Part shown: positions 1-41,612 of the stretch, in pieces
Layout: each line of letters begins with the position of its first letter
Position numbering within the stretch: position 1 is the first letter of the stretch
Virus record (IMG/VR): IMGVR_UViG_3300048024_000800
Span: 10,952-74,951 of that record
Origin: a virus
Lineage: Duplodnaviria > Caudoviricetes
DNA: 64,000 nucleotides
Direction: 5' to 3' (one strand)
Made by a program: the position numbers and the translations under genes
The notes under the pieces: generated by a model
Told to the model about the DNA's origin: nothing
Seen by the model: the letters and a program-made list of their open reading frames with translations, nothing else
Database searches by the model: none

Positions 1-2
1 AC

Positions 3-3000
3 GGTAATACGGCCCCGCTGGAGGCAGCTGTTCAGGCGGCTGTAAACAGAATTCGCAAGACTCCAATCAAGGTAACTGTTGACGATAAGGGCGCTACTCA
101 GCCCTTGGGCAATATGAAGCGGGGCGCTGATGAGTTTAGCAAATCGATGGAAGCTGCGAACGCTCGTATTATAGCTTTTGGAGCAAGTATGGCGATTATA
201 AATGGAATTTCTGACGCATTCAAAGCTATGGTCACCAATGTCGTTCAGGTAGAAAAAGCTTTGGCAGATATTAATGTTGTGATGGGTTTAAGTTTGGCTA
301 ACTTGGATAAGTTTTCAGACTCTTTATTTAAGGTGGCGAAGGAAACTGCTGCAAGTTTTGATGTAGCTGCTGCAGCAGCCACGGAATATGCACGTCAAGG
401 TTTAGCTGTTGAGGAAACCTTGAAAAGAACCAAGGACGCTTTAATCTTGACTCGATTAACAGGCATGGACTCTGCAAATGCAGTTAAAGCTTTAACTGCC
501 GCGATGAATACATACGGAGATCAAATAAAAGATACTACTCAATTGGTTAGTAAGTTTGCCGCAGTAGACGTTAAGTTTGCGGTTAGCGCGGAAGACTTTG
601 CTGATGCAATATCTCGTACTGGTCAGGCTGCAAAAAGTGCTGGAGTAGATATTGATGAGTTGGTGGGTCTGGTTACTGCAGCGCAGCAGCAAACTGCTAG
701 AGGTGGTAAAGTAATCGGAAACTCGTTTAAAACAATTTTCACGAGAATAGGAAGAACTGATACATTAAATCAATTAGAAAACTTGGGCATTGCTGTTCGA
801 GATGTCGAAGGAAATACAATCGGCGCAAAAAGAATTTTGACTGATCTTGCAAATACGTTTGACTCTTTGACCGAGTCGCAAAAAGCTCAAATTGCACAAA
901 CAGTTGGTGGAGTTTTTCAAATCAATGTTCTTAAGGCTGTATTAAGTGATGCCGCGAAACAAAACGGAATTCTTGCGAACGCAACACAAATTTCTGCAGG
1001 GGCTACGGATGAAGCTATACAAAAGAATGAACAACTAAGAAGCACAATGTCTGCAATGGCTAGCGAAACAGGTCTCGCGCTTAAAGAAGTTTCTGCTAAA
1101 ATAGGGGAGCTCGCGATAGCTCCTGGAATGGAAAAGATTTTAAATATCGTTAAAGGTTTTGCGGAAGGAGCTTCTGATATGCTTGGAGATGGAGAGTCTT
1201 CTGGAAATAAATTTGCTACAGGTTTTTTAAAAGGACTCGGTAATATTATTACTGGTCCGGGATTGGTTGTTATCGTTGCCGTGTTTGGCAAACTATTTTT
1301 GAAAGCGGCTCAGTATGCTCGAGAAAGTTTGGGCTCGTTGATTGGTGTTACGAGTGAAGCTCAAAAACAAAAAGCTATACAAACTTCTTTGGTCACTTTA
1401 TTTGGTCAGAACGCAGCTCTTAGCAAGGAAATGTTGCGCACCGATATCTCTCGAACAGAAAAGGAAAGAATAATTCTTGGATTGCTTAAAGCTCAGGTAG
1501 TGGAAGCTAATGCTTTAAACACTATCGCGAGAAGTTCTGCAGCTAATTTGTATCAAAAAGGTTACGGATCTAATCTTGCTCCCAGAGCAAAACCTCGCCG
1601 TACAAGCGCGCAAGGTTATATACCTAATTATGTAGACGCTGAGCGCCAGCAAGCCGCACAAGGTGGGTATGCTGCTGGAAGTATTCGCAGTATGAACATG
1701 CCTGGCGAAGGCTCGGTGATATACAACAGTGCAGAAAAAGTAAAGAATTTTAAAGGTATGAGTCAGCCCGCGATTATGCCTCCAAAGTCAAGTAAAGCTG
1801 GAGAAAATTATCAACAAGCATTTGGCAGTATACATGGATTTGATCCATATGCTGCAGGAGGATATATACCGAATTTTGCGAAAAAAACCGCATCTAAAAC
1901 TTCTGATATTCCACGAAATCTTAATTCTAAAAAACTGGGAGATCTGAATAAAGATTCTTCTTTAATTTTATTAACCGCTGACTCTTCTGCTGATAGCGAG
2001 TCGAGGTTCTTTGTGGGAAAAGACCCTAAGGGTGGGACAAAAATTTTAAACACTGCAGATCTAGCTTCAAAGAGGACTACGGGTTATTACCAAGTAGATG
2101 TTCCGTATTATTCTCTAGATAAAAACGACAAAAGTAGGAAAAGTAAAATAGACTTACCCTCGATACAAAAGGCAATTACTGCTGCAGCATCAGGCAAAGC
2201 TCTTGATATAGCCAAGCAAATTGTCGGGGGAGAGAAGAATTTAAAACCTTTTAATAGAGAACAAATTAAAGAAACATTTAATAAAGGCGCTTTTAAGGGC
2301 GCCGCTGGTAGCGCATTCGAGAGTGCAATAGCTGCAGCCCTTGACTCTTATTTGTTTCAAGATTATAAAGCAAGAACTGATACATCTGCTATAGATTTAC
2401 CTTATGACCCTAAGGTGTTTCAGTATTTTGGAGCTCCTCCTGGTGCTGGGAAAATGGGGGCAGAGGTAAAAGCTGATCTAGCTAACAATTTGCAACAAGG
2501 TGCCGCCAATAAGTTTTATCAGGTTTTAGCGGGGGGTCGTGCGGCATGGCAATATAAGGATAAAAATTTTAAGGACCAAATGAGGGGGCCGGCTGAAGAT
2601 GCAGGTTTGGAAAGAAGGGGGGGCGCTTATTTTAAGAAAGGTAGGGCTTACGGTCATATTCCAAACTTCGCCGCAGCGCGACTAGCTCTCACGGGTGGAT
2701 TGGTTGGAAAAAACAAATTTGGCAATATAGATCGCAGGCAGATGACAAGACTAGTAAGATCTAATCCTTACTTCAACGGCTTGATGAATGAACATCTTAC
2801 ATGGGACAGTTTTCCGAAAAAAGATAAGCGTAAATTAAGCAGGTGGCTACTCAAACAAGGGGTGTCTAACCGAGCCTTACAAGCGTATGGTCTTGCAAGC
2901 ATGCATTCAAAATCGATCGGAGAGGGAATCTCAAACTTAGCTATGGCGAAAGGCTATATTCCTAACTTTGCTGACCCATTATCTGATGCGATAGGTAGGG

Positions 3001-6000
3001 AAAAAGAGGCTGGAGTTCCTGTTTCAAAAATAAGAATTGGCTCTCATTCAGCGCTAATGAATAAAAGCAATCCGATTGGTCTGGGCGTAACCAATACAGA
3101 CGATGAACCAAATGGATTGCGAGATGTATTTGGAGCTGCTAATGGATATGTGCCGAATTATTTTAATCCATGGGAGCGCTTAAAAAGTTCGGTAAAGAAT
3201 AGCGATTTTGGAAAAAGCTGGGATAAGGCTACGGCGCAGCACACCAAAGAAATACAAAGATTAAACGCCAGAATCAAACAAAGAGAGCAAGCTTTAAGCA
3301 AGCATAATCAAGAGTTATCAGCACTCACTAAGGGGACTAGTGAGTATAACGCAGTTCAGAGAAAAATAAGAGACACCACCAAAAATTTAAATAAAGCTAC
3401 GCAAAAAAAGACTGCCCTCCTAAACTCTCCTGCGCCTGGCGTCGGGGGCAAGATGGGTAGATTTAGTCAAGGTCTCGGAAAAGCTTTTTCTGGAAATTCA
3501 GGCATGATGATGATGATGGGAGCTCCTATGGCGGCAGGGTTTCTTCAGCAAGGGGGGATGGGTGCACAGGGAGGAAATCAAAATATGTACGCTGCAGGTG
3601 GAGCCTTAAGCGGTGCCGCTTCCGGAGCTATGATGGCAAGCATGATAGCCCCAATGTTTGGACCTGGAGCTCCTTTAGTTATAGGTATTGGTGGACTAAT
3701 TGGAGGACTTGAGGGCTTAGCGGCTGCAAATGAAGAAAATACAAAAGCATTAAAAGAAGTCGAGAAAGAAAGAAGGCAGCAGGTTGTATCTTCTTTTGTA
3801 GGTGCAGATCCTAAGTTCATGCAAAAATTTTCCAAGAACATATTTAAAGACCTGAGCCCAGAAGACAAATCAGTCATGAGAATGGCAGCGCCTGAGTTTA
3901 CAGCCACTAAACCCCCCGATGTTAGCGAAAAAGACATATTTACGAGAAGCGCAGTTAACCCAATAGCTAAAATGAAAATTCCTTTTTTGTCTCCGCTGTT
4001 TTCTCCAAGCGACGAAGAAAGAGCGCAAGCTACGGAATATAGAGAACAGATGGATGAACAAAAGCAATTTCAAAAATACCAAAAATACCAAGTTAGCAAT
4101 ATGAGAAAAGCTTTGGGGTCTATGGGGGATGAAGAATTTTTGTTGCCAAATTATCAAAAAAATAAGCAAGGTAAAATACAAACAAAAGGGCAACCCGAGT
4201 TAAAAAAAGCTTCTGCATATCTAGAAAATTTAGAAAACATAGGGTTTTTTGAGGTAAAAGATACTGGTGACGTAGCGAGGGTTGAAGCTCTTCGGTCAAA
4301 GTTATACGAAATCTACCAAAGCAATCTAACCCAGCAAGAAAAAGCCTTAATTCTTCAATTAAACTTTCAGCGAGTGATGTTAAAATCCCAAAAAGCTGCC
4401 GCGGATACTCAATTAGATATAAAAAGTAAATATCTAAAACAATCTAATTTATTAGATTCTCAAGAAAAGATTCTCGGTGGTTTGATAAGCGAAGAGCAAA
4501 AAGTTAGAATTCAATACAATAAAAATTTAACAAAAGCTTCTGAGGCGTATGCTAGTGGAGCTGCCAAGGCGGAATCTGATTTTTCTATGGGCCTGCTTCA
4601 AGATATTCAGGGACAAGGTAGGGATAGCCTTAGATCTGCAATAAAGCAAGAGTTGTTTAATCGGATGACCAACGAAGAACAGCGTGGAAAGGGAACCGCA
4701 GAGAGTATTTCAAATGTCGAACTCTCTGGAGAATTAGCCGCAATGTCATCTAAGGAAAAAGAAGAATTTTTAACGAGCTTAAAAAATAAAAATAAGGGGC
4801 TCGATAACGAAATTAATGAAATACTAGGCAATAGACAATTAATATATGATAACCAAATAAACACCCTAGAAAAACAAAAAACTCTTTCTGATGGTCAGAG
4901 CCTGTCTCAAAAAAATCTCAATGAAAAAATTGCTAAACAAAAAGACCTAATGGTTGATGTTAACAGGGAGATGCAAGCTTACATCCGTGGGTTAGATAAT
5001 GCTGCTCAATCCAGGGTAATAGCTTCTGAAATTACCGCTGCTAGATTTGGAGCTAGACCTCAAACACAAGAAGCAACTTTTGCGGAGCAACAAAGATTGG
5101 TCAAGGAAAGACAGCAAGGTATTCGCGAATCATATACAAAAAGCGCAGTTTCAGAAATGCAAAAACTGGCAACTGATAAAGGTTTAACTAAGGAGCAAAG
5201 ATTGGAAATTGCTGCTGACCCATCAAAATTAAAAGGTATGTCTTCAGCGGCTATTGACTCTATGGAGAAAAGCTTTAAATCAAGAGGAGGGTCGAGGAAA
5301 ACTACAATGCTAGATCAATTAATAAAAAATAGCCCTACTGACACGGAAGACCAAAAAAAATTAAAAATTTCAAGAAAACAGGAATTGGATGAATTAAAAA
5401 CCCTTGAACAATCAATTACTGACGCAAAAGCTCAAACATCCAAACAAGAAGACGATATTATTGCCAAGCTTGAAGAGCAAAAAAATAAAGTTGAAGAAAG
5501 AATATCAAAAGAAAAAATATTGCAAGAAATAAGAGAAAAAGAATACACCCGAAGAACTGGCCCAGGTGCTTTCGGAGAGGGCGTTAAGGATGCTGGGATA
5601 GATATGGAAAAGCGGGTCGCTATGATGGACTACGAGCTTGGAACAAGGCTTCCTCAAACATTTGCTAATGGTTTGTCTGGAGCGTTCATTGAGGCGATCA
5701 ATGGAGCCAAGGACTTGGACGACGCGCTCAGAGACGCTGGCTTGAATTTCTTGAAGATGATTCAAGAAGCCATGATGCAAAAAATGGTCATGCAAATGAT
5801 GGGAGGCTTGGGATTTTCGCAAGGAGGTAATGTCCGCAATTACTCGAAGGGCGGAAATGTTCCCGCAAGAGTTTCGAATGGAGAATATTTAATGAGTCGA
5901 GAGGCTGTAAATAAATACGGCGGATCATTTATGCATGGATTGAACGCCCGAGGAAAAGCTCCTGGATTTTCTTCTGGAGGAAGAACTATTCAGCCAGGAT

Positions 6001-6995
6001 CCGCACTGGCTGCTAATTTTGGCGGAGCCGAAGGTTATAAATCCGGAAAAAGGTACCAATCTCAAGCAATGTCTTCATTTTTTTATAGCGGACAATCCGG
6101 CAATCCTGGACTGCGGGAGGACACCGACGAAATGAGTAAAATATTGGCAGAAAGAGAGCAAGCAAGGTTGAGAGCTGAGGCTGAGGCAAAAGCAAAAAAA
6201 CAAGAAAAAAGAGCCATGTGGGGCATGCTTGCCGGAATTGTCGCGACCTCAGCGGCGAGCTCATTAATGGATCATTTCTCTAGTTCAAACTTAACTGCAG
6301 ACGCAAAGGCTGATGGTTATACTGTAGACACTCCTTCTGGGGTTAGGTCTGCCACAAAAGATGGTTACCAATACAGTCTTCTGCCTGGCGCTAGCGACAA
6401 AGGATTTGATAATGTTTCTAAAACCAGAAGCTGGAACCCTTTTAGCTGGGGAGGTTCTGGAGCTGGAGCCAGCATAAATGAAAGGCAATTTCAATTTAAT
6501 GATTTTCAGGCTTCTCCGAATTATGGCGTTCCCCCCGACCCGTTCGGCTATAAGGACCCTAGGCTTGCGTATTTTGGTGGAAAAATAGGTAACTACGCAA
6601 ATGGCGGACCTATTTCTGGGAAATCTGGAATCGATCAAATTCCTGCGATGCTTAGCGAGGGCGAGTATGTCGTTAAAGCTAGTAGTGCGAGACAGATTGG
6701 TAGGCCAATGCTTGACCAAATAAATGCAGGAAAGTTTTATGATGGAGGGCAAGTATCTACTTTAAGCCAGAACTCGGAATCTTCCGTATCTGAGGGTAAT
6801 ACAAATAATATAAATATTTCCGTAAATATAGAAAATGGAACAGTAAAAGAATCTAATGAAAACTCAAAGGATCAGGATTCGAAAAATCAGGATTCTAGTA
6901 GTGAGTCTAAGATCGCCCAAAAAATTAAACAACAAGTAGTTGCTGTAATAATAGAAGAACAAAGGATTGGGGGTCTTTTAAACAAGTCTAAATGA
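3..6995 (+). CDS. Tail tape measure protein, TP901-type core (5' end lies upstream of the window; frame is open from base 3)
   Basis: Ala/Gly-rich helical N-terminal core typical of TP901-family TMPs (ATEYARQG, LTRLTGMD, AVDVKFAVSAEDFADAISRTG, IGNSFKTIFTRI); hydrophobic segments; long coiled coils; C-terminal [FY]xxGG...GEY motifs; upstream of tail-tip genes. The frame reads GNTAPLEAAVQAAVNRIRK... without a stop before the called TTG at 105. Confidence 0.93.
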   Translation, partial: GNTAPLEAAVQAAVNRIRKTPIKVTVDDKGATQPLGNMKRGADEFSKSMEAANARIIAFGASMAIINGISDAFKAMVTNVVQVEKALADINVVMGLSLANLDKFSDSLFKVAKETAASFDVAAAAATEYARQGLAVEETLKRTKDALILTRLTGMDSANAVKALTAAMNTYGDQIKDTTQLVSKFAAVDVKFAVSAEDFADAISRTGQAAKSAGVDIDELVGLVTAAQQQTARGGKVIGNSFKTIFTRIGRTDTLNQLENLGIAVRDVEGNTIGAKRILTDLANTFDSLTESQKAQIAQTVGGVFQINVLKAVLSDAAKQNGILANATQISAGATDEAIQKNEQLRSTMSAMASETGLALKEVSAKIGELAIAPGMEKILNIVKGFAEGASDMLGDGESSGNKFATGFLKGLGNIITGPGLVVIVAVFGKLFLKAAQYARESLGSLIGVTSEAQKQKAIQTSLVTLFGQNAALSKEMLRTDISRTEKERIILGLLKAQVVEANALNTIARSSAANLYQKGYGSNLAPRAKPRRTSAQGYIPNYVDAERQQAAQGGYAAGSIRSMNMPGEGSVIYNSAEKVKNFKGMSQPAIMPPKSSKAGENYQQAFGSIHGFDPYAAGGYIPNFAKKTASKTSDIPRNLNSKKLGDLNKDSSLILLTADSSADSESRFFVGKDPKGGTKILNTADLASKRTTGYYQVDVPYYSLDKNDKSRKSKIDLPSIQKAITAAASGKALDIAKQIVGGEKNLKPFNREQIKETFNKGAFKGAAGSAFESAIAAALDSYLFQDYKARTDTSAIDLPYDPKVFQYFGAPPGAGKMGAEVKADLANNLQQGAANKFYQVLAGGRAAWQYKDKNFKDQMRGPAEDAGLERRGGAYFKKGRAYGHIPNFAAARLALTGGLVGKNKFGNIDRRQMTRLVRSNPYFNGLMNEHLTWDSFPKKDKRKLSRWLLKQGVSNRALQAYGLASMHSKSIGEGISNLAMAKGYIPNFADPLSDAIGREKEAGVPVSKIRIGSHSALMNKSNPIGLGVTNTDDEPNGLRDVFGAANGYVPNYFNPWERLKSSVKNSDFGKSWDKATAQHTKEIQRLNARIKQREQALSKHNQELSALTKGTSEYNAVQRKIRDTTKNLNKATQKKTALLNSPAPGVGGKMGRFSQGLGKAFSGNSGMMMMMGAPMAAGFLQQGGMGAQGGNQNMYAAGGALSGAASGAMMASMIAPMFGPGAPLVIGIGGLIGGLEGLAAANEENTKALKEVEKERRQQVVSSFVGADPKFMQKFSKNIFKDLSPEDKSVMRMAAPEFTATKPPDVSEKDIFTRSAVNPIAKMKIPFLSPLFSPSDEERAQATEYREQMDEQKQFQKYQKYQVSNMRKALGSMGDEEFLLPNYQKNKQGKIQTKGQPELKKASAYLENLENIGFFEVKDTGDVARVEALRSKLYEIYQSNLTQQEKALILQLNFQRVMLKSQKAAADTQLDIKSKYLKQSNLLDSQEKILGGLISEEQKVRIQYNKNLTKASEAYASGAAKAESDFSMGLLQDIQGQGRDSLRSAIKQELFNRMTNEEQRGKGTAESISNVELSGELAAMSSKEKEEFLTSLKNKNKGLDNEINEILGNRQLIYDNQINTLEKQKTLSDGQSLSQKNLNEKIAKQKDLMVDVNREMQAYIRGLDNAAQSRVIASEITAARFGARPQTQEATFAEQQRLVKERQQGIRESYTKSAVSEMQKLATDKGLTKEQRLEIAADPSKLKGMSSAAIDSMEKSFKSRGGSRKTTMLDQLIKNSPTDTEDQKKLKISRKQELDELKTLEQSITDAKAQTSKQEDDIIAKLEEQKNKVEERISKEKILQEIREKEYTRRTGPGAFGEGVKDAGIDMEKRVAMMDYELGTRLPQTFANGLSGAFIEAINGAKDLDDALRDAGLNFLKMIQEAMMQKMVMQMMGGLGFSQGGNVRNYSKGGNVPARVSNGEYLMSREAVNKYGGSFMHGLNARGKAPGFSSGGRTIQPGSALAANFGGAEGYKSGKRYQSQAMSSFFYSGQSGNPGLREDTDEMSKILAEREQARLRAEAEAKAKKQEKRAMWGMLAGIVATSAASSLMDHFSSSNLTADAKADGYTVDTPSGVRSATKDGYQYSLLPGASDKGFDNVSKTRSWNPFSWGGSGAGASINERQFQFNDFQASPNYGVPPDPFGYKDPRLAYFGGKIGNYANGGPISGKSGIDQIPAMLSEGEYVVKASSARQIGRPMLDQINAGKFYDGGQVSTLSQNSESSVSEGNTNNINISVNIENGTVKESNENSKDQDSKNQDSSSESKIAQKIKQQVVAVIIEEQRIGGLLNKSK

Positions 6996-8122
6996 GTTTC
7001 TCTAATTACCAACAAACCGTAATAATAAACGGAATATCTTTATCTGGGGTTCAAGATGTTAACGGAAGTTATGGAATCAATGAAAAGCCTGTTCGTGTTG
7101 CAGGGGCTGGATTTGTTGACGCTTTAATAGATTCTCCGCTAGAAGGAAACTTTTCGATTTCAAGAAAAATGGTAAGCCGGGACCCTCTTCTCTCTTCCAA
7201 TGTTATTGGCTCCTACGATTTTGATGAAGAAGAAATTAGCGGGGCTATACTTTATGATGAAGCTAGCAAGGGGTTCGGGTTTACTAAAGGTAGGGTTTCC
7301 AGGTATTCTGTTTCTTGTTCTGTTGGAGATATTCCGTCTATCGAGACCGATATTATTGTGTTTGGGTCGTTGGGAAAAAATGTTCTATCTGAAACTCGTT
7401 TCGAAATTAATGAGTCTTTTGCAAATTATCCATTTGGGGGCGATGATGTCTATTTCTTGGATTCTAATGGAAATCTTCTTGATGGTTCAAATTCAGAGAA
7501 TTTAAAAACTAAATGGGATGGCGGATCTTTAGTCGTCAGTCAAAGTGATTATAATTCTCTACCTTCTAACTCTCGCATATTCGACGATGGTGATGTTTTG
7601 GGTTTGGGCAGAAACGCATTCTCTTCGCAAGTTTCCTATGAGGGAGCTATAAACAAAGAGCATCCACCAATACAATTTTGCGATCAATCTAGTATTAAGG
7701 TCAGTGTTAGTGATTTTGAAATAGATGCTGTCAGTGATTTTAGTTTTAGCAGGACAATAAACTTATCACCGATTTATGCAATACATCAAGGAAACGACCA
7801 AGAGTGGGATGAGGGCAAACTTAGTTTTCCTAACCTAGAGCCTGTTCAGATAGATACTCAATATCCGATTGAGACAGATATAAATTTCACGATGATCGTT
7901 CAGTCTTATCAAATAAGAGAAATTAGGGAAAGAATACAGTCTGCCCCAAAAAGCGATGTATCTATTCAAATAAGGGATTCAAAGACCGATCAAATAATCA
8001 ACTCTCTGGTCGGAAGAAACGTAAGACTTACAAGTGAATCTCTCACTTCGAATACAGAGCAGGAGATGTCCATATCTTTAACCTATAAAGGTTATGAAAC
8101 CTCTCACAATCCCGTAATATGA
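6992..8122 (+). CDS. Putative tail tube-fold/tail-tip hub protein with an inserted ~70-aa module
   Basis: ATGA-coupled to the TMP; alternating beta-strand pattern in two similar halves (INGISLSGVQDVNGSY.. / FEIDAVSDFSFSRTINL..); position between TMP and gpM. Confidence 0.5.
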   Translation: MSFSNYQQTVIINGISLSGVQDVNGSYGINEKPVRVAGAGFVDALIDSPLEGNFSISRKMVSRDPLLSSNVIGSYDFDEEEISGAILYDEASKGFGFTKGRVSRYSVSCSVGDIPSIETDIIVFGSLGKNVLSETRFEINESFANYPFGGDDVYFLDSNGNLLDGSNSENLKTKWDGGSLVVSQSDYNSLPSNSRIFDDGDVLGLGRNAFSSQVSYEGAINKEHPPIQFCDQSSIKVSVSDFEIDAVSDFSFSRTINLSPIYAIHQGNDQEWDEGKLSFPNLEPVQIDTQYPIETDINFTMIVQSYQIREIRERIQSAPKSDVSIQIRDSKTDQIINSLVGRNVRLTSESLTSNTEQEMSISLTYKGYETSHNPVI

Positions 8123-9036
8123 GTAATCCGTTTTTAAGGTTCGAAGATGGAAAAATTTCCTTAGGAGGTAAAGACTTATTGGTTTCATCTGCGAACCTTT
8201 CTATTTCTCCATCTTTTCAGGTAGAGAGGGTTTACGGGGATTATGATCCCGACCTGGTTGGAGCTAAGACAGAATTTATTAATTTCGCCCCAATGACCGG
8301 ACTTAATGGAAAATTGGATATTTCGTTTTACATCTCCGCCGAATCTTTTAATCGAGAAGGAGGTATTAATTCTATCGAAAGACTGTTTGAAATAAAAGGC
8401 GGAATGTCTGAGGATCCTATACATTCAAATGTTGTTGGTAGATATTCTTTCGACAATATGTATTTAACTTCTTTTAGTTTTGAGCTTCAACCTTTTAAAA
8501 TTGTTAAGGCTAGCGCTTCGTATATTATATATGGTTCAATCAGAAAGAATCCTAGCCGAAGATTTGTTCAGTTGGGAGCTAATTTTGCTCATGGGTTAAA
8601 ATCTTTCGGGCAAATAAAAATTGGAGGCGCTGCAGTTAACCCTTCTTCCTCTGAGAAGTTTGAAATTAATAGTTTGAATTATAAAATAATCGTGGATAGA
8701 AAGCTACATACTAAGATAAGAGAATCTGAAAATACGAGTATTAATACTTTTCCCGACGGGGTCTTGCCTTATAGAGTTTCAGTTGAAAGCATCGAGTCTG
8801 AAATGAATGTGCAATGTAATGATATTGTCTCAAGCTTGAATTCTTACGGAGATCAGCAGCTGGGGAGCTCTCCCGAAGGGCTGCAAGATTCTGAAATTTG
8901 CGCCTTTTTGTACTCTGCAAAAGGGGAGAGGGTCGCTAAATTTTCCTCAAGGGGTAAGATTCAGTCAGAGTCTATTTCTATAACTGAAGGATCAAACGCT
9001 TCTTGCAATATATATATTAAGGAAATTATAAAGTAA
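8119..9036 (+). CDS. Putative tail tube-fold/baseplate hub protein
   Basis: Overlap-coupled within the tail operon; beta-rich pattern (ANLSISPSFQVERVYG, MYLTSFSFELQP) resembling the preceding gene. Confidence 0.45.
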   Translation: MSNPFLRFEDGKISLGGKDLLVSSANLSISPSFQVERVYGDYDPDLVGAKTEFINFAPMTGLNGKLDISFYISAESFNREGGINSIERLFEIKGGMSEDPIHSNVVGRYSFDNMYLTSFSFELQPFKIVKASASYIIYGSIRKNPSRRFVQLGANFAHGLKSFGQIKIGGAAVNPSSSEKFEINSLNYKIIVDRKLHTKIRESENTSINTFPDGVLPYRVSVESIESEMNVQCNDIVSSLNSYGDQQLGSSPEGLQDSEICAFLYSAKGERVAKFSSRGKIQSESISITEGSNASCNIYIKEIIK

Positions 9037-12000
9037 TGAGTAATAATCCTGAAGATGGAAATTATTTTCTAGCTAACATATCTAATTATAGCGGGGTTTT
9101 TGACCCTTCTCTTAGTTATAAAAAGTTTGATTTTGTTTATGATCAGAATGACGGGCTTTATTATTACGCAAAAAAAGATATTTCTTTTGGTGGTAATGTT
9201 CAAGTTTCGGGTGATTATAGATTTGATTTAGTTCCAGATGGCCCCATAATAGATAATAGAGAGTCGTATTACATTTATGATAAATGGAATCAATTAGGGT
9301 TGCTAAACCAAGGTTTTCGTGCTGGACAAGAAATAAGTATACAGGGTTCTATACAGGGTTCAAACGGGAACTTTGAGGTTTTAGAAGTCGAAGAGAGCGT
9401 GGACGCTTATTATAATTCAGAAGCTCAAAACACAATTATCTCTGCGTTAGATCTCACTGAACTTGCTGGAGGTTGGTACAGGTCTTCGTGGTTTTTTATT
9501 CCTAATAAGGGAGAAGTTTCTGAACTCGACAAGTCTCTTAACTATCTAATAGAAGGTAGTAATTGGATTTATAATACACTACTCGGTTGGCTTTTTATTA
9601 ATCTTGATAATTCTTACGGAAAAAACTTTTGGTTTTACATGCCACAATTTTCTAACTCTAGGAGTGAGGGTGACGGTGTTTGGTTATGGGCTGATATTCA
9701 AACTATCGGGTCTTCAATTGCAAACTCAAACTCTTTTATTTATCTAGGACCTTCTAATCAAGTTAACGACTACTTGAGTTATGTGGTAAATTCTCCAGAG
9801 CTTAATGAATATTACTCTCTTGGTAAAAGTTGGGATTATCAGGATGGCCTGGGCTCTCTTCCGTCAGATAGAAAAAGTAAAGAGGAATTTGGACTAAGTC
9901 ATTGGGTTTTTAACGGAGAAAAAGAAGGTTATTCTATGCCAACAAAACAGCTCATGGGTGCAGAAAGTTGGGTTTTTTGTTCCGAGTCTCACTCAGACTT
10001 ATATTCTGTTTATTTTTATAATTACTCTGATAATACTTGGTTTGGCAAATCAACGTCTTCTCTGGCTATCTCTCAAGTTTCGAGTTCTCAGGTTCAAATA
10101 TCTCCAGAGTCTTCTGTTCCTTCGAGTTTTGTACCTAATAGGTTGACCGATGGAGTATCTTCTAGGTTGATCGTTAGAGGTTCAAATGAGAATTCTAAGA
10201 TTTCTACAATTGAGGAAGCTGGCGAAAATAATATTATTCTTACCTCTATCAATAATTTGCCCAGTTCTAATCAAGATGCTTGGGCGTCCGACAGATTCTT
10301 TTTTGATGCAGATTATGGATCTACTGTAAATTTCAAAGCCAATGTGAGTAAAAATGAATTCGGCAATGGATATTATTCTGTTCAACCAAAAGGAATTAAT
10401 TGTTTGGACTTTGAGGTTAATTTAGATTTTAGAAATAGGACTAATAGGGAGGCTAATGCAATCATTCATTTTTTAGAATCCCATCAAGGCCAACTAGAAA
10501 AAGATTCTTCCTCTTCTTTTTTGCAGTATAATCAGGGAATATCTGGATTCAATTGGGACGGCTCTTCCACCTTTCATCCATACGACTCCCTGGATAATCA
10601 GTCTAAAACTTTTTACTGTTCAGAGTTTTCTCATAGTTTAAATTTTGAGAATAGTAATGATGTCTCTGTTAAGTTGAGAAATTTTAATACTTCTATATTG
10701 AATAAGTCTGAATCATTGTTTATTAATAGAGCTGATGATTATAGCGAAAGCTCTTATTATTCTAAAAATGATGTGGTTTTTTATCCGGATAATCATCAGT
10801 ATTATTATTTTCATAGCGGAAGCCAGCATCAGGAGGCTCTAGCTGGGCCTCCCGTTTTGATGCATGATGAGTGGACTAAACAAAGCGGGTATTGCTCAGA
10901 GATAAACAAAGAAGCGTGGACTAGGGAGTTTTTCTGGAAACCTTCTGTCGGGCTAACTGTGTCCCAGAACCCCAAGGTTTTAGAATTAAATTTGAACGAT
11001 TCGTATTCGCAGATTTATGCAAACGGAATTAATGCTAATCTATTAAATTTAAATCTAAATTTTAATAATAGAGATGACGCAGAGTGTTATTCTATTCTTC
11101 ATTTTTTGGAACAACATTACGGATCTGTACCTTTTATATTTTACCCTCCTGCTCCCTACGAAACAGAAAAGGCTTTTATATGTAGAGATTGGTCTCACGT
11201 TTATAATTTTAAAAATAATCATAGTATATCTGTTCTATTCGAGGAGTTTCCTTTAAAGCTATCGAGTGAGGATTTAATTAACCAAATATCTCCCGCAATA
11301 AAAACTAAAGGAGAAATAATTGCTCCTTCTTTTTTAGAGTTTTCTGAAGAGAATGAAGAGTTCTCTTGGGATTCCGTGTTAAAGAAAAGGTTTTATATAA
11401 AAAATGTTGGCGGAACTGATGTAGATATATCAAGCTTGCGCATTTCTTCAGAAAGATATTTTAGAATTTTAGGAAAAAGGTCCTTGGGCGAAACGTATTG
11501 CACTGAGGGGCTTGATAGAAAAAGTTTAGTTTTCGACGAGAGCTTTGTTACAGCGCGATCTATATATTTAGATATTTTAGAGCAAGATGCTCCCGAGAGT
11601 TTTATTCAAATATATTCTGAAGATTTAAAATATTGGAGCGTTGGCGATTTTATTGGGGTGCTAATGAATGACGATTTATTTCTTTATTCCGCTCCTTCCG
11701 TTAAAAAAATAAAAATTTTATATAAAGATTTATTGGGTAGGGATGCAGATTCGCAGGGCTTAGATTACTATATAAATGAGAGTGATAATTTAAGTATTGT
11801 TGAGTCAATAATGGATTCTAGTGAGTTTTGCGAAGCTTTTCTTTTGCCTAAAACTTCTGAGCGGCCAGGAACCGTGCTGCAAGTACCTTTGGATAAGCTA
11901 TTAGATCTTAATCTTCAGGGTAGGACGATAAAACTTAAATCTTATGATGATGGAGTTCAGGGGTTTGAGACTTTCGACGATGGCCCTTTCGCTAGATTTA

Positions 12001-14438
12001 TTCAGTACCCGGATGGAAAAATAAAAGATGAGGGATCTGGCACATTTTATGATTATTCGTATTTCATTAATAGCTCTATGTTTGAGCAATATGGAACTTC
12101 TGTCGTTCCTGCTTATTCTGAGGTATATATAGACATAGTATATCAAAATAAATATGGCGAGATTCCGGCATTTTTTTTAGAAGATAATTTAGGGGAGAGA
12201 ATAGAGTGGAATAATTATGATGGAAGCCCGGGAGGAGGGTTAAAGATTTCAAATGGAAGCGAGTGGCTCGACTCCGAACTTACAATTCAAACTGATTCTA
12301 AGGCAATAAAGTCAGAGCTTCGAGCTTGGGTGACGTCTTCAGATAAAGAGCGCAAAGAAGTTATTGAGGAGGAGAATGAAGCCTGGAAAAAAGCCGAATG
12401 CATAACTTTTCCTTTCAGCCTAAGATTTATGGATGCAGATAGCAGTCGTTTTATAAAATTTGGTAACCTCTGGCTTCAATCATTTAGTCATGGGGACCCA
12501 GTCCGACCTAGAACCGAAAACTCTGAGGGAACTTTATTTAAAGATGCGGTTAATTGTAGGGCTGATTGGCCTTTGTTTGACTCTTCTGACTCTGTTCATT
12601 ATTTAGGTTTATGGGTTCCTTATGAATTTAAAACTTTTTCAATACAGAATGGGGGGGTTTTATTACCAAGGCCTTTTTCTCCAACTTCTGTTCTAAGTTC
12701 TACCGGTGAGCTAAAAATTAACTCCTCTATTTCTTTGGACGTCGCTAATTCTGATATTCATACATTGATAAGTATTGAGCCTATCGATTCATCTGAATTA
12801 CCATTAGGGTATTCCAGCGGTTGGAGTCAAAAAGGAATTATGAAAATTCATTCTTCAAAAGCTAACACTTTAGAAGATAATGTATCTTTGCCGGTTAGTT
12901 TTTCATACTCTTGTTTTTCTGAAGCTTCTTGCTTTATTGAGGATAATGCGGGATTGGGTAATATACAGTTTTCTATAGAACCTGTAGTTTATAAATATGG
13001 AATGTTGTATGACAGCGAGCTTGAAAGCTATTATGTAGAGAATAAAGATGGAGATTCGCTAGGAAGAAACCTAGATCTTGATTCGGCTTACAGTCTGCTA
13101 CTGAGGTCAAAAACATCTCTCGATGCTTATAAGAAGATGGTTGATTACTGGGGCAGGGTTTCATGCAGAATTTGGAGGCACTTGACTAGAACTGACGCTC
13201 AGGATGAATTGCTCAAGGAAGCTTATTCAAATCAGGGGCTTGAGCGACTTTGGGTTGTAGGAAACTTTATTCGACAATCTTCTCCGCTTCCATATTTAAA
13301 AAACTCTCCTGGGTTTAATTTTGATATAAATTTTATGTGCCCAGATATAGATCCTAGGTTTAAAGAAGGGCTTGAAGAAGCTATACTTTCTTGGCAGAAT
13401 ATTATTCAAGATGATTGTTCTATAAGTGTGGACATAGTTGAGACCTCTCATGGCAGACTCCCTGGAGAATTTGGGTTTGATCCAAATTCTTCAACAATAG
13501 CTTATGTCGCATCGAGTGCGTCAAGTTTTATAGAAAAAGGCATGAGGGTCTGGGGAAAAGATTACCCTCTTCGCGCAAGCGCTGTTTTTGCGTATAACCC
13601 TGAGATTATGTCTTCTGATGAATCTCTTAATTTAAATAGCTTGGGATCAAGTTTTGCTAAAGAGGTATCATCTCATGAACTTGGGCACGTTTTTGGGTTG
13701 ACTGTGTTTCATAAAGTGGGGTTTTTCATGCCTGCAAGCCAAGAGAAGCTTGATGAGATAATACCTAACCAAATCATAAGGCCTTTTGACGGAGATTTTG
13801 TTTTCTTTACTAATTCAAATGGAGATACTTTAAGCGAAGGTGAAAATCTGAAGACGATATGGGACAACCTACTTGGACCTTGGGAAACAGAGCCTGTGTT
13901 TATAGACCAGGCGCAATACGATTCTCTGTCCGACGAATCTTTTTTAAGTTCTGACAATAAAACATTATCTTTGGGCAAGGACGCCTTTAGTGAAAGAAAT
14001 AACATAACCTCTTTCTGGGGAGATGAGAGTCGGCAACTCATGGCTCATTCTTATGAAAATGAAGATTTTGGATGGCAATATATCGCAGCTAAAGGGGTTG
14101 AAAAGTATCAAGAGTTAATTGCTCATAATGGATACGATGATCCAGATAATTATTTTTATGAAAGCGTGCCTCTTAATCAAAGGAATAATACCAATTCTAC
14201 AGAAATACTACCGGACCTGCACTTTTCTGAGTTTCCAAAAAAGCAAAAAAATGGCATTAAATGGCAACCAGCTTTTCCAGCCGCCCTTATGACCACTTTT
14301 ATCGACTTAAATAAGGGTATGACTCAATCAAGATTTACTTTAGGATGTATAGAGGATTTAGGTTATACTGTTGATTATACTTTTGCATGTTCTAATGATC
14401 ACCCTAGCTTAAAAATAGATGCTGGAGAGAACGATTAA
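9036..14438 (+). CDS. Enlarged lambda gpM-like distal tail protein: two gpM-like domains, Trp-rich repeat, DUF4214-like helix bundle and C-terminal zinc metalloprotease
   Basis: Two gpM-like units (FGNGY..QPKGIN..F.NRT..EANAIIHFLE.H.G and SYSQ..NGIN..FNNRD..E..ILHFLEQHYGSVPF); HELGH at 13674-13688 followed by H.SE..LMT..SRFTLGCIEDLGYTVDY; immediately upstream of gpL. Confidence 0.8.
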   Translation: MSNNPEDGNYFLANISNYSGVFDPSLSYKKFDFVYDQNDGLYYYAKKDISFGGNVQVSGDYRFDLVPDGPIIDNRESYYIYDKWNQLGLLNQGFRAGQEISIQGSIQGSNGNFEVLEVEESVDAYYNSEAQNTIISALDLTELAGGWYRSSWFFIPNKGEVSELDKSLNYLIEGSNWIYNTLLGWLFINLDNSYGKNFWFYMPQFSNSRSEGDGVWLWADIQTIGSSIANSNSFIYLGPSNQVNDYLSYVVNSPELNEYYSLGKSWDYQDGLGSLPSDRKSKEEFGLSHWVFNGEKEGYSMPTKQLMGAESWVFCSESHSDLYSVYFYNYSDNTWFGKSTSSLAISQVSSSQVQISPESSVPSSFVPNRLTDGVSSRLIVRGSNENSKISTIEEAGENNIILTSINNLPSSNQDAWASDRFFFDADYGSTVNFKANVSKNEFGNGYYSVQPKGINCLDFEVNLDFRNRTNREANAIIHFLESHQGQLEKDSSSSFLQYNQGISGFNWDGSSTFHPYDSLDNQSKTFYCSEFSHSLNFENSNDVSVKLRNFNTSILNKSESLFINRADDYSESSYYSKNDVVFYPDNHQYYYFHSGSQHQEALAGPPVLMHDEWTKQSGYCSEINKEAWTREFFWKPSVGLTVSQNPKVLELNLNDSYSQIYANGINANLLNLNLNFNNRDDAECYSILHFLEQHYGSVPFIFYPPAPYETEKAFICRDWSHVYNFKNNHSISVLFEEFPLKLSSEDLINQISPAIKTKGEIIAPSFLEFSEENEEFSWDSVLKKRFYIKNVGGTDVDISSLRISSERYFRILGKRSLGETYCTEGLDRKSLVFDESFVTARSIYLDILEQDAPESFIQIYSEDLKYWSVGDFIGVLMNDDLFLYSAPSVKKIKILYKDLLGRDADSQGLDYYINESDNLSIVESIMDSSEFCEAFLLPKTSERPGTVLQVPLDKLLDLNLQGRTIKLKSYDDGVQGFETFDDGPFARFIQYPDGKIKDEGSGTFYDYSYFINSSMFEQYGTSVVPAYSEVYIDIVYQNKYGEIPAFFLEDNLGERIEWNNYDGSPGGGLKISNGSEWLDSELTIQTDSKAIKSELRAWVTSSDKERKEVIEEENEAWKKAECITFPFSLRFMDADSSRFIKFGNLWLQSFSHGDPVRPRTENSEGTLFKDAVNCRADWPLFDSSDSVHYLGLWVPYEFKTFSIQNGGVLLPRPFSPTSVLSSTGELKINSSISLDVANSDIHTLISIEPIDSSELPLGYSSGWSQKGIMKIHSSKANTLEDNVSLPVSFSYSCFSEASCFIEDNAGLGNIQFSIEPVVYKYGMLYDSELESYYVENKDGDSLGRNLDLDSAYSLLLRSKTSLDAYKKMVDYWGRVSCRIWRHLTRTDAQDELLKEAYSNQGLERLWVVGNFIRQSSPLPYLKNSPGFNFDINFMCPDIDPRFKEGLEEAILSWQNIIQDDCSISVDIVETSHGRLPGEFGFDPNSSTIAYVASSASSFIEKGMRVWGKDYPLRASAVFAYNPEIMSSDESLNLNSLGSSFAKEVSSHELGHVFGLTVFHKVGFFMPASQEKLDEIIPNQIIRPFDGDFVFFTNSNGDTLSEGENLKTIWDNLLGPWETEPVFIDQAQYDSLSDESFLSSDNKTLSLGKDAFSERNNITSFWGDESRQLMAHSYENEDFGWQYIAAKGVEKYQELIAHNGYDDPDNYFYESVPLNQRNNTNSTEILPDLHFSEFPKKQKNGIKWQPAFPAALMTTFIDLNKGMTQSRFTLGCIEDLGYTVDYTFACSNDHPSLKIDAGEND

Positions 14439-14444
14439 CATATT

Positions 14445-15644
14445 ATGACACAGGAATCAAGTTCAAACTTAAATAAGCAGTTAAATTCTTTAACTCCTGA
14501 TACTCTTCTTGAGTTTTTTGAGATAGATTTTAGCAATCTCCAAGCAAACTTTGATCAGTTTAAATTGGATTATGGAATAACTTTTGGCTCTGAACCTATT
14601 TATAGGTTTTGCCCCATGATAAATGGAACAAACCCTATTATCTGGCAGGGAATTTCCTTTCAGCCTTTGCCTATAAAAATAGAAGGTTTTGAGCATAAGT
14701 CTGAAGGAGGTTTGCCTAGACCAATATTAACCCTTGCAAATCCTGATGGAATATTCTCTAGAATAGTTTATTCTAATCAAGATTTTACTAATTGTAAGGT
14801 AACCAGAAAGCGAACTTTTGCTAAATTTCTTGACTTGGATAATTTCCAAAACAGGAATCAGGAGGGTGGCACCAATAGCCTCTTTGCTCTCGAAGATAAA
14901 GAAGCTCATTTTGATGATGATATATATTATGTAAATAGGAAGGTTTCCGAGAGTAAAAAAAGCATATCTTTTGAGTTAATTTCTCCACTGGAAATGGAGA
15001 ATGCCAAGATTCCTGCAAGAAAAATAATTTCTAATTTTTGTCCATGGACTTATAGGTGTTCTGTGGGTTGCAAATACAATGGTTTGCCTATAGAGAGTAT
15101 TGAGGGAGTTGACCTTACTGAGAATTTTTTAAGCAAAAAGAACCAGGGGTTGTTCTCTAATTCTTCTTCAATTAATGCATCATTACTTGATAAAGATTTA
15201 GGTAAAGTCAGGGTAGATCGATATCCAGAAATGCTTAAGTCTGTGCCTGAGTGGAGCCCTTTTGGTCATCAATTTTCTGAAGAATCTAAAAAGTTTTTAG
15301 AAGGTTCTGAAGTGGAAATATTCAGTTACAAGTTGGGAGATTTGGTAAAAATAGTTAATTCTTCGTCTTCCAATCCTTACGTTCAGGTGCCGCAAGTTTT
15401 TGTGTGCACGAGAACTCATGCATCTCCGGCTGAATTTCATCCCTATTTAAGCAAGGATTATTGGGCTAAGGATGAATGCTCTAAGACTATAAGCGCATGT
15501 AAAAAAAGATTCCCTCCTCGAGGCTCCGTAGAAGAAAAAAAATACGCAACTAGAGGTAATATTTTTGTAAGAAAAGAGGGCACCATTCCTCAAGACCTTA
15601 GGTTTGGGGGTTTTCCTGGAACTGAGGAATATCCTTTTGAATAA
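14445..15644 (+). CDS. Lambda gpL-like tail tip protein (Fe-S cluster binding)
   Basis: IWQG..FQPLPIKIEGFE....LPRP.LT.AN, VTRKRTFAKFLD..NF, four-Cys motif CPWTYR..GC...DECSK..SACK.RF, and terminal FGGFPG. Confidence 0.93.
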   Translation: MTQESSSNLNKQLNSLTPDTLLEFFEIDFSNLQANFDQFKLDYGITFGSEPIYRFCPMINGTNPIIWQGISFQPLPIKIEGFEHKSEGGLPRPILTLANPDGIFSRIVYSNQDFTNCKVTRKRTFAKFLDLDNFQNRNQEGGTNSLFALEDKEAHFDDDIYYVNRKVSESKKSISFELISPLEMENAKIPARKIISNFCPWTYRCSVGCKYNGLPIESIEGVDLTENFLSKKNQGLFSNSSSINASLLDKDLGKVRVDRYPEMLKSVPEWSPFGHQFSEESKKFLEGSEVEIFSYKLGDLVKIVNSSSSNPYVQVPQVFVCTRTHASPAEFHPYLSKDYWAKDECSKTISACKKRFPPRGSVEEKKYATRGNIFVRKEGTIPQDLRFGGFPGTEEYPFE

Positions 15645-15966
15645 TCCCTTCCAAGAATTATTGCTATGTAAGATTAAAAAATATGCGAGAGAAAACAGTG
15701 GGGAGGAGTCCTGCGGCGTTATAGTTCGGGATCTTGCGGGTTTTAAGTTCTTTCCTTGCGAGAATTTAAGCCTAAGAAAAGATTCTCATTTTTTTATAGA
15801 CCCTTATATTATAGTTGAAAATGATGTAGCGTGCATTTATCATTCTCATGTGAGTCAATCTTCTGAACCTTCTGCTCTTGATAAAAAAACTTCCAATGAA
15901 TTATGTATTCCTTATTTAATATATAGTTTAAAAGATGATGACTTTTATTTTTATAATTGTGTATAG
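15637..15966 (+). CDS. gpK-like JAB/MPN metallo-isopeptidase lacking an NlpC/P60 domain (start TTG 15637, or 15604 as called)
   Basis: EESCG..., HSH......PS..D JAMM motif; lies between gpL and gpI as in lambdoid tails. Confidence 0.85.
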   Translation: MNNPFQELLLCKIKKYARENSGEESCGVIVRDLAGFKFFPCENLSLRKDSHFFIDPYIIVENDVACIYHSHVSQSSEPSALDKKTSNELCIPYLIYSLKDDDFYFYNCV

Positions 15967-15984
15967 TAAGTATAAGGTAATAAG

Positions 15985-21129: not shown

Positions 21130-21130
21130 G
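21116..21130 (+). promoter_or_regulatory. Putative late promoter motif GTGTA (copy upstream of the giant fibre)
   Basis: GTGTATTTAAGTAAG-ATG; same motif and spacing as at 51254, 52947 and 55562. Confidence 0.5.
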
Positions 21131-37525: not shown

Positions 37526-38175
37526 TAAAACGGAGCATCCTCTGAGGGCGTCGGTTTTTCGGTTTTATTATTTGCGCCATCACAAGAAATGTTTAGTAGT
37601 TTTTGAAGCATACCTAATCCTCCAGCTAGATAATCTTGGGGCCTATTATCGCTTTTATCTCGATAGCTTTGCATCTTTTTATGATCCTCTATTCTTCTGT
37701 GCTCGTAGAGACAATGAAGGTAATGTTTAAAAAATTCGGCTAGATTCTCTACCTCGCCGGGTTCTAGTGGTATTCTGAAATTTTGACTTCCATTTCTAGT
37801 TAGGGTTATTCCGAAGGCAGGAAGAGTTACCCATTTTTCAGAATCTGCGGTTTTTATTTTTGACTTCTTGTCCCAGGGGGTAAATTTTATTGAAGTCTTG
37901 TTGTCTTCAAATGCATGAAAAGATGAGAATTCGTTCCTGTTTTTAAACGCGCTTATTACTCCGCCTATTTCAAATTCAGTAAATTTTATATTTATTTTTT
38001 TATCTGGATCATTCGCATTTTGAGAAAAGCTTCCCGTTTTTGTTTTGTCGTTCCAACTGTGCTGTTGAATGGCGTTTGCGTAAACAACCGGCTCTTTCTT
38101 TTTGTTATGACCTATTGAGAAATTGAAAGCACAACCTGCGTTTTTGCTGTTTGGTTTGTATAAAGATAATGACAT
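37525..38175 (-). CDS. Hypothetical protein, possibly PC4/Whirly-like ssDNA-binding protein
   Basis: Beta-rich N-terminal domain and acidic SSB-like C-terminal tip EDAPF. Confidence 0.35.
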   Translation of the reverse strand: MSLSLYKPNSKNAGCAFNFSIGHNKKKEPVVYANAIQQHSWNDKTKTGSFSQNANDPDKKINIKFTEFEIGGVISAFKNRNEFSSFHAFEDNKTSIKFTPWDKKSKIKTADSEKWVTLPAFGITLTRNGSQNFRIPLEPGEVENLAEFFKHYLHCLYEHRRIEDHKKMQSYRDKSDNRPQDYLAGGLGMLQKLLNISCDGANNKTEKPTPSEDAPF

Positions 38176-38196
38176 GATGTTAAAGATATTTTAATA

Positions 38197-41608: not shown

Positions 41609-41612
41609 ACAA

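Follow-up and report, generated by a model that had tools for sequence, protein, structure and literature searches.

The 64-kb window considered here (64,000 nucleotides (nt); nt 10952–74951 of a 74,951-nt IMG/VR virus contig, G000, rated 54% complete by CheckV) opens with a tape measure gene on the plus strand. This gene, together with the array of short peptide motifs and intervening modules that it encodes, is the subject of this study. The tape measure open reading frame (ORF) occupies nt 3–6995, with its 5′ end open, and encodes 2330 amino acids (aa) within the window; in the parent contig, the frame extends to ~2340 aa, and the start codon lies ~8–10 codons upstream of the window. The phage, uncultured and marine, is a long-tailed, lambda-like one, and the gene product is its tape measure protein. 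It matches 14 PHROG families, 13 of which carry the annotation tape measure protein, and, as in the TP901 family, it is a long (2330+ aa), largely helical protein encoded directly 5′ of the tail-tip genes. The genes on its 3′ side match the minor tail protein PHROGs 14 and 18 and are followed by an I/J-like fusion, a 3885-aa ORF, and a fibre gene.

C-terminal of the TP901 core, the protein contains five copies of a six-residue motif, G-[YH]-[IV]-P-N-[FY], which we name M1 to M5. All five are encoded on the plus strand in one frame, starting at nt 1614, 1860, 2652, 2952, and 3144 (res. 538, 620, 884, 984, and 1048), with spacings of 82, 264, 100, and 64 aa. These positions and spacings, as well as the location of the motifs after the TP901 core, agree with a first reading of the DNA sequence (hereafter the initial annotation), which had also noted an alanine shortly before the glycine; this residue is found at position −2 in 5 of 5 window copies. 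The inter-motif segments are referred to, in order, as c0 (82 aa), c2 (264 aa), c3 (100 aa), and c1 (64 aa). A degenerate DNA pattern for the motif has five matches in the window, against a mean of 0.00 in 100 dinucleotide-preserving shuffles, none of which reached five. The gene and its array comprise the following features, with the predicted local distance difference test (pLDDT) of AlphaFold2 models given where it applies.

3..6995, plus strand: tape measure protein gene (ORF list and translation; PF10145; tape-measure PHROGs).
339..911, plus strand: TP901/PhageMin_Tail domain, aa 113–303 (PF10145, 97 bits, cut-off 33.2), upstream of the motifs.
1614..1631, plus strand: M1, GYIPNY (pattern search, translation).
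1632..1859, plus strand: c0, 76 aa between motifs, conserved core module (in 177 of 225 proteins; pLDDT 35–79).
1860..1877, plus strand: M2, GYIPNF, left edge of the hypervariable module (pattern; identity of relatives ends 0–2 residues after it; break of a seawater contig at nt 1876).
1878..2651, plus strand: c2, 258 aa, hypervariable module; N-terminal half beta-rich and variable, C-terminal half helical.
2307..2513, plus strand: conserved c2 signature G769-x-x-F-E773, D798, E821-x-K823, K837 (alignments of c2).
2652..2669, plus strand: M3, GHIPNF (pattern; identity resumes 0–5 residues before it; match of a seawater contig starts at nt 2639).
2670..2951, plus strand: c3, 94 aa, optional mobile cassette with a helical core at aa 911–961 (cassette comparisons; core pLDDT 80–89).
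2952..2969, plus strand: M4, GYIPNF (pattern; comparison with locus L007).
2970..3143, plus strand: c1, 58 aa, most conserved module (23 of 70 columns invariant; pLDDT 51–68).
3144..3161, plus strand: M5, GYVPNY, after which the sequence is again exchangeable (pattern; a 7187-nt seawater contig diverges after 3161).

Conservation of the motif and exchange of modules

The motif recurs throughout a large family of proteins, sampled here from metagenomes and partly through the conserved modules themselves. A search with aa 520–1075 returned 837 proteins at E ≤ 0.001 among 7994 scored candidates. In a set of 121 proteins, made up of 120 listed matches and the window's own protein, all 121 carry three to nine motif copies (four in 76, five in 33), and 41 relatives of 4079–5000 aa carry 4–17. 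Because this sample leans to relatives of the window's own segments, a separate search was made with a profile of c1 alone, which gave 968 matches at E ≤ 0.001 (758 at E ≤ 1e-10) against 1.84 billion cluster representatives. Among the best 150 of these 968 matches, 84 proteins are at least 1900 aa long, and 82 of the 84 have at least two motif copies. The distribution peaks at three (30 proteins) and four copies (34), with one copy in two proteins, two in six, and five in five, and higher counts of 6, 8, 10, and 11 (one protein each), 13 (two), and 18 (one). The five-motif form of the window is therefore a minority form, since only 5 of the 84 have five copies in this sample. In most full-length relatives, the first motif falls at residue 530–730 irrespective of total length; one relative, P0015, starts six residues before M1, which could reflect a natural split or a gene-calling artefact. 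Six variants of the motif string, looked up in 8.4 million papers, turned up in no relevant one, and a literature search likewise gave no relevant paper pairing 'tape measure protein' with 'IPNF'.

The motif is longer than the six residues used to collect it. In 225 proteins, 805 of 876 PN[FYW] tripeptides stand within the full motif, and among 481 distinct instances an alanine occupies position −2 in 86% and position +6 in 77%, so that the extended consensus reads A-x-G-[YFH]-[IV]-P-N-[FY]-A. The codons of the window copies differ, and in 255 motif copies synonymous codon use is roughly as in the rest of the genes; thus, the constraint acts on the peptide, not on the DNA. The idea of the motif as a DNA-level recombination signal was rejected for the same reasons, the synonymous codons being close to background and the five copies differing at third positions. 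The motif fixes ~12 of 18 bases, which may perhaps be enough for low-frequency recombination. An unusual arrangement is found in the relative P0204, where, at aa 630–1260, a ~19-aa unit, GYIPNF-A-x-x-[IV]-E-x-A-[IV]-E-P-K-A-R-A-K, is repeated ~8 times before c1; this array includes two decayed motif copies, GYTPNF and GYITNS.

The four segments belong to four separate sequence families and are unrelated to one another, as originally described. A profile comparison of c0 with c1 by hhalign aligns 10 columns, which are the motif only, and c0 and c1 were rejected as repeats of one unit. Across 225 proteins, 963 inter-motif segments fall into 163 families (100 singletons). The prevailing architecture in the first 121 proteins is c0-c2-c1 (76 proteins), followed by c0-c2-c3-c1 (20, plus four with an extra far-downstream motif); others have modules of 121–135 aa or 244 aa in the c3 slot, or more complex arrays.

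The segments differ sharply in conservation. Clustering at 50% identity places 128 distinct c1 sequences in one cluster, with the core pattern L..AI.RE..AG.P...IR...L....NP.GL.VTNT.DEP.G., and 114 distinct c0 sequences in three; c0 also contains a degenerate inner motif copy, KVKNF in the window and VVPN[FY] in distant relatives. The conservation of c0 and c1 is partly a selection effect, because loci and representatives were found via c0 and c1 patterns. The c2 module is present in every protein but hypervariable, with 145 distinct sequences forming 41 clusters at the same threshold, and c3 occurs in 38 of 225 proteins in five different slots (1, 3, 4, 5, and 7). The initial annotation had regarded all four segments as swappable cargo. 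This description fits c2, which is hypervariable, and c3, which is optional and mobile, but not c0 and c1, which are conserved core modules in nearly all relatives. In the divergent relative P0163 (483 aa), three tandem c1-like domains follow a coiled coil, each preceded by a motif variant (IPNL, IPHF, LPHF), and this protein may represent a separate lineage with c1 as the repeated unit.

The motif had been proposed to be a processing or recombination junction, and the second of these roles is strongly supported: the number and identity of segments vary between relatives, while the motifs and their flanks are conserved. Specifically, proteins P0007–P0014 share with the window 98–99% of the 300 aa preceding M1, 99% of c0, 99–100% of c3, and 95% of c1, with only 22–29% identity in c2. 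The switch occurs directly after M2, and identity returns 2–3 residues before M3. In P0004, the window's c2 is kept (98%), and an unrelated 244-aa module stands exactly between M3 and M4 in place of c3. Alternative versions are found again after M5, starting FNPWE or APTP. Of the 56 pairs of IMG/VR loci whose 150 aa preceding M1 are at least 90% identical, 52 show a c2 identity of 50% or less. The borders of the exchanged region were mapped in 257 pairs in which c0 is at least 95% identical, the 36 residues from M3 are at least 85% identical, and c2 is unrelated. Identity reaches 0 residues beyond M2 in 126 pairs, one in 104, and two in 27; on the other side, it begins 0 residues before M3 in 185 pairs, one in 14, two in 46, three in 11, and five in a single pair. 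The DNA behaves likewise, with near-identity to the last M2 base, an unrelated stretch, and near-identity from within or just before M3. A scan of metagenome contigs yielded 22 loci, many of them on contigs equal in length to IMG/VR loci of the set and none from the window's near-identical lineage with another c2.

Sequence comparisons indicate that the window's own c3 has moved between phages. Nucleotide identity between the window and locus L007 is 69.5% over the 600 nt that precede M1, 85.5% in c0, and 50.9% in the unrelated c2, rises to 98.2% in c3, and falls to 74.1% in c1 and to 53.0% beyond M5; the tract of high identity starts immediately after M3 and tapers off past M4. Similarly, c3 is 93–94% identical in P0033 and P0040, whose N-terminal parts are 37–41% identical to the window. 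In 10 proteins inspected, c3 has six different left and two different right neighbours, and similarity ends at the motifs. Because c3 is joined to unrelated neighbours, recombination at or next to the motif is needed.

Module turnover is also visible in natural populations. At least half of the sampled words of nt 1300–3500 are present in 14 DNA sequencing runs, taken from seawater and further marine or aquatic metagenomes; three of these runs may be the source of the window's DNA. We compared contigs with at least 95% likeness to the window from four runs of four studies, excluding from the evidence the parts of the stretch left uncovered in runs X4–X6. In the seawater run X6, one contig carries the window's c2 (nt 1827–2537). 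A second contig matches nt 1827–1876 and is then unlike the window, breaking in the last codon of M2; its continuation, read by eye as F-S-S-K-E-I-G-K-K, is like the c2 start in P0007. A third contig shows no likeness to the window before nt 2639, a position 13 nt upstream of M3, and then matches it as far as nt 3097. With contigs carrying the window's c2 and another version, two c2 versions thus occur on the same backbone in one sample. In run X8, a 7187-nt seawater contig matches nt 1300–3161 with 41 differences, diverges after the last M5 base, and continues A-P-T-P-L-T-Y-S-D-I, the alternative version found in P0011 and L002. Six RNA runs hold 6–23% of the sampled words, from which we make no claim of expression.

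Predicted structure and putative activity of the modules

AlphaFold2 models were obtained for aa 532–893 (54 sequences, mean pLDDT 72.6) and aa 878–1073 (56 sequences, mean pLDDT 57.0). The segments had been called globular-looking, a term that suits most of the 264-aa c2, with pLDDT ~73–97 over model residues 105–325 (aa 636–856), and the 50-aa helical core of c3 (model residues 34–84, pLDDT 80–89); c1 (51–68) and c0 (35–79) are only weakly predicted. The stretches around the motifs fall below pLDDT 50 in both models, which place the motif in low-confidence linkers between parts predicted to fold on their own. A predicted trimer of c1 with its motifs (three copies) scored 0.00 and is not evidence either way.

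The conserved signature of c2 contains E, D, and K residues that are invariant in 54 aligned sequences and at least 80–90% conserved in 111, and the position two before the lysine is E or D in all 23 alignment rows printed. In the model, G769-x-x-F-E773 lies on a helix and E821-x-K823 on a strand. This order of residues (acidic on a helix, D, [ED]-x-K) follows the residue pattern of PD-(D/E)xK nucleases, and c2 may be predicted to be such a nuclease, a tentative assignment that is somewhat more apt to prove wrong than right. No stand-alone protein of 196–627 aa matched c2 plus c3 at E ≤ 0.001 among 8000 scored candidates, a search limited by its word filter.

Several relatives carry recognizable domains inside their cassettes. 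An SNase domain is found in P0080 (aa 1004–1100, inside segment 740–1156; 27.1 bits, cut-off 21) and in P0129 (aa 2191–2288, inside segment 2158–2360; 25.1 bits, cut-off 21). P0129 also contains a CI-repressor helix-turn-helix (HTH) domain, Phage_CI_repr (aa 1063–1097, inside segment 890–1331; 36.5 bits, cut-off 22), and L029 contains DUF7178 (aa 906–1102, inside segment 891–1177; 70.3 bits, cut-off 27). As far as it is evident, the theme of these domains suggests nucleic acids rather than the cell wall. Effector delivery by the cassettes, which the initial annotation had put forward, is putative and only suggested by the SNase, CI-type HTH, and DUF7178 domains of relatives and by the c2 signature.

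Interpretation, alternatives, and related systems

Residues 538–1053 probably form an array of modules, punctuated by a junction peptide, that are exchanged between related phages and putatively act at injection. Two modules, c0 and c1, are constant members of the family; c2 is present throughout, in dozens of very divergent versions that keep the E, D, [ED]-x-K set; and further modules, such as c3 in the window, are optional and travel between tape measure proteins that are only distantly related. New combinations would arise by recombination, whether in the short conserved stretches coding for the motif or in the flanking modules that are conserved, and the surviving joins would be those that keep the frame and fall at linkers. 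Judging from what is known of tape measure proteins, the modules would travel in the tail as part of the protein and exit from the virion before the DNA does, so that their site of action during injection would be the envelope or the cytoplasm. The SNase and CI-type HTH domains of relatives and the acidic/basic triad of c2 may point to work on nucleic acids. As for the motif peptide itself, there is perhaps close to an even chance that it serves as a flexible junction plus docking site, and a lesser one, which we would call unlikely, that it is a cleavage site freeing the modules.

Several observations weigh against this interpretation. The invariance of G, P, and N in the motif is partly by construction, because the collecting pattern fixes these residues, and the divergent P0163 has IPHF and IPNL in place of IPNF. 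The tandem arrays of P0204 suit a repeated binding peptide better than a domain separator. The pairs counted above are phylogenetically non-independent, and pair counts do not equal event counts. For the c2 swaps, homologous recombination of the ordinary kind in the conserved flanks, c0 on one side and c1 or c3 on the other, could suffice, with the motif uninvolved; it is the variety of c3 neighbours alone that calls for joins at the motif. That this protein is ejected and that its modules are active are predictions. On the functional side, the four window segments match no Pfam family at E ≤ 10, including any recognized toxin family or SNase (PF00565), and Pfam searches of 54 aligned c0 plus c2 sequences find no family in more than two members. 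A sequence profile search of the PDB gave only two chance-level coiled-coil matches, the ESM Atlas gave no usable match, and Foldseek returned nothing at E ≤ 0.001 for the first model against PDB and BFVD or for the second against PDB. The nuclease reading of c2 draws on three to four conserved residues, and the c2 model has one strand and one bridge around the signature, not the four-stranded sheet of PD-(D/E)xK enzymes; a fold comparison did not find their alpha-beta-beta-beta-alpha-beta core in c2. Most cassettes of relatives are without a recognizable domain, and 3 of 12 relatives scanned whole carry an above-cut-off domain inside a cassette.

Other explanations assign the motif or the modules a different role. 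In a polyprotein, the motif would be a cleavage site, self-cleaved at its Asn or cut by a phage or host protease, and the modules would be released as effectors during assembly or after ejection. Motifs flank every module in low-confidence linkers, as polyprotein cleavage sites do; protein-level conservation covers G, P, N, and the aromatic residue; and the cassettes of relatives include enzyme-like and DNA-binding domains. Several tape measure proteins are processed, and in FlhB/EscU, as in some virus capsid proteins, the peptide bond that follows an Asn can be broken through formation of a succinimide. As a rule, however, self-cleavage at Asn depends on folded surroundings, whereas disorder is predicted for the motif, and P0163 has His for Asn in two motif-like copies. 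Pfam finds no protease domain in the tape measure protein, and in the small part of the phage genome covered, namely the ten ORFs on the 5′ side, the two directly on the 3′ side, and the 3885-aa ORF, there is no match to a PHROG with an annotated function. Cleavage of the P0204 tandem arrays would give useless small peptides, and c0 and c1 are conserved core parts, not cargo. We consider the polyprotein distinctly unlikely. Its boldest form is improbable: a self-processing delivery polyprotein in which A-x-G-[YFH]-[IV]-P-N-[FY]-A would be cut after Asn outside the tail, freeing changeable nucleic-acid-targeting enzymes and DNA-binding domains ahead of the genome, with the same peptide as a trading handle for marine phages, as a phage counterpart of polymorphic toxins.

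The motif could also stay uncleaved and act as a docking peptide that binds a partner repeatedly, such as the inner wall of the tail tube, an assembly chaperone, or a factor in the periplasm or membrane of the host, with the modules as tolerated insertions. A short peptide conserved at the protein level in a disordered context is consistent with this role, as are the P0204 tandem array of 11 motif copies with 11–36-aa spacers, two copies only four residues apart in P0035, and the giant relatives, in which motif pairs around c0-like or c1-like modules recur downstream with 800–1300 motif-free residues between them. Docking nevertheless calls for a putative partner and leaves the invariant charged triad of c2 and the enzyme and DNA-binding cassettes unexplained, and we hold it somewhat unlikely. 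A role in immune evasion or host adaptation is doubtful. Here, c2 and the optional cassettes would be surfaces seen by host factors or defences at injection and swapped for escape or for a new host factor, rather than for the delivery of an activity. The hypervariability of c2 between conserved flanks and the two c2 versions in one seawater run fit such a role, and there is a precedent in which an injection-stage defence targets a tape measure protein: a preprint describes the E. coli membrane nuclease SNIPE as acting during injection and cross-linking to a tape measure protein, where escape mutations map (bioRxiv 10.1101/2025.11.03.685801). Those mutations fall at residues 100–150 of another tape measure protein than the present one, and the E, D, [ED]-x-K set that is invariant in an otherwise free-running c2 suggests an active or binding site, not only a variable surface. 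Evasion can be compatible with an array of exchanged modules acting at injection. By comparison, the chance that the motif is a random or low-complexity repeat without significance is negligible, with five copies found against 0 expected and conservation across hundreds of proteins.

The array of exchanged modules invites comparison with known systems. Polymorphic toxins have border motifs such as VENN in CdiA and PxxxxDPxGL in Rhs proteins; an account of these toxins, cited in PMC7824862, is that of Zhang et al. (2012, Biol Direct 7:18). As in those toxins, where nuclease domains are common as cargo, a short conserved peptide here borders a conserved carrier and exchangeable domains, and near-identical carriers bear unrelated motif-bordered domains. 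Unlike in the toxins, the exchangeable parts are internal and have the motif on both sides, up to 17 slots follow one another, and the carrier belongs to the tail of the virion; the window modules match no toxin family, and no immunity gene is known, no search aimed at one having been made.

In mycobacteriophages, tape measure proteins carry Rpf-like and peptidase motifs, and T5 pb2 likewise has an embedded enzyme domain. These resemble the present case in having extra domains inside the protein that act during infection but differ in that theirs are cell-wall hydrolases at fixed positions; we know of no motif-bounded exchangeable slots described in tape measure proteins of this type. Polyvalent proteins are similar in being large multidomain proteins injected with the phage DNA and, as relayed in a later article, are thought to have multiple activities against host defences (Iyer et al. 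2017, via PMC7824862). Their domain content is recognizable, whereas that of the tape measure cassettes mostly is not. To our knowledge, polyvalent proteins are not tape measure proteins and lack a punctuating junction motif.

The nearest relatives in kind, going by excerpts of the published account, are the Sle1-type effectors of actinobacterial contractile injection systems, in which a coiled-coil carrier resembling a tape measure bears a functional domain that has diversified (Nagakubo et al. 2026, PMC13277306). One Sle1 relative inhibits the growth of E. coli, presumably via nucleic acids, and the authors speak of a reconfigurable platform (PMC13277306). In contrast to the array described here, those excerpts present a single C-terminal variable domain, report no junction motif, and concern a cellular nanomachine, not a phage. 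In the gp38 adhesins of T4-type phages, as outlined in part of the original article, short conserved glycine-rich motifs delimit hypervariable segments of a phage structural protein (Trojet et al. 2011, PMC3157838). The present case differs in that whole domains of 60–600 aa inside the tail are framed. The gp38 motifs are said to guide modular exchange, the segments reportedly being short loops of the receptor-binding tip.

The logic of a conserved carrier, a border motif, and exchangeable domains is thus already known from polymorphic toxins; what is new is the junction peptide, together with the internal, two-sided, multi-slot array that a phage tape measure protein contains. The usual view of such proteins is that they are rulers and membrane conduits. 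The family described here counts ~970 cluster representatives at 50% identity in public metagenomes, with arrays of 1 to 17 slots and at least 163 segment families. Near-identical seawater phages differ by whole modules, and the turnover is therefore like that of receptor-binding proteins, toxins, and defence genes, yet inside the tail; injection-stage defences targeting tape measure proteins would offer a second possible reason for it. If the modules act during injection, they would constitute a large unexplored pool of early-acting phage proteins, mostly without known fold or family, and the motif would make them easy to pick out of metagenomes by sequence. In this family, the length of a tail would then be poorly predicted by that of its tape measure protein. 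As a natural insertion site, the junction peptide may also be of use for placing foreign domains in a tail protein.

Neighbouring genes and other features of the tape measure protein

The motif array of the window sits between two hydrophobic stretches, located by hydropathy.

1221..1319, plus strand: hydrophobic, membrane-segment-like stretch, aa 407–439, upstream of the cassettes (Kyte-Doolittle window 19, maximum 2.19).
3627..3731, plus strand: Gly/Met-rich hydrophobic stretch, aa 1209–1243, downstream of the cassettes.

The second stretch belongs to a Gly/Met/Ala-rich hydrophobic region (aa 1160–1245; window 3480–3740, plus strand) that contains a five-Met run (GNSGMMMMMGAPMAAGF). The relative P0068 carries the Pfam glycine zipper PF13488, according to precomputed annotation. 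Closer to the C-terminus, at aa 1935–2250 (window 5800–6750, plus strand), are two modules with the pattern G-G-x-[VI]-P-A-x-[VL]-S-x-G-E-Y-[LV] (GGNVPARVSNGEYLM, IDQIPAMLSEGEYVV), and phrog_13338, a family without an assigned function, matches aa 2193–2245. A relationship of c0 or c1 to these GEY-type modules was rejected at an hhalign probability below 1%.

Among cultured phages, neither tblastn with aa 520–1076 nor megablast with nt 1–20000 found a match in 50,697 phage records. A host scan of 185,579 species genomes matched only two short contigs of one Flavobacteriaceae metagenome-assembled genome (MAG), which is too little to name a host; one source entry among the relatives names a Crocinitomicaceae MAG.

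Upstream of the tape measure gene (nt 1–11100 of the parent contig, locus L110), 0 of 10 ORFs has a PHROG match at E ≤ 1e-5, and 7 of the 10 lie on the opposite strand. Two same-strand ORFs directly 5′ of the gene (nt 9080–9898 and 9904–10890 of the parent contig) stand where tail tube or chaperone genes are expected. Right after the tape measure gene, at window 6992–9036 (plus strand), two ORFs of 376 and 305 aa without a PHROG match at E ≤ 1e-5 occupy the place expected for a distal tail protein. The I/J-like fusion is a 1714-aa ORF (window 15985–21129, plus strand), whose N-terminus resembles tail assembly protein I (phrog_32, aa 1–184) and which continues as a body like the central tail fibre J (phrog_31, 329 bits); the two are separate genes in lambda. 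Directly after this J-like gene, and overlapping the preceding ORF by 65 nt at its 5′ end, lies the 3885-aa ORF (window 21065–32722, plus strand), which has only two weak PHROG matches, to families without an assigned function, near its C-terminus. After the tail fibre gene, 16 closely packed ORFs run on the minus strand (window 33643–47870), followed by a plus-strand block from 48327.

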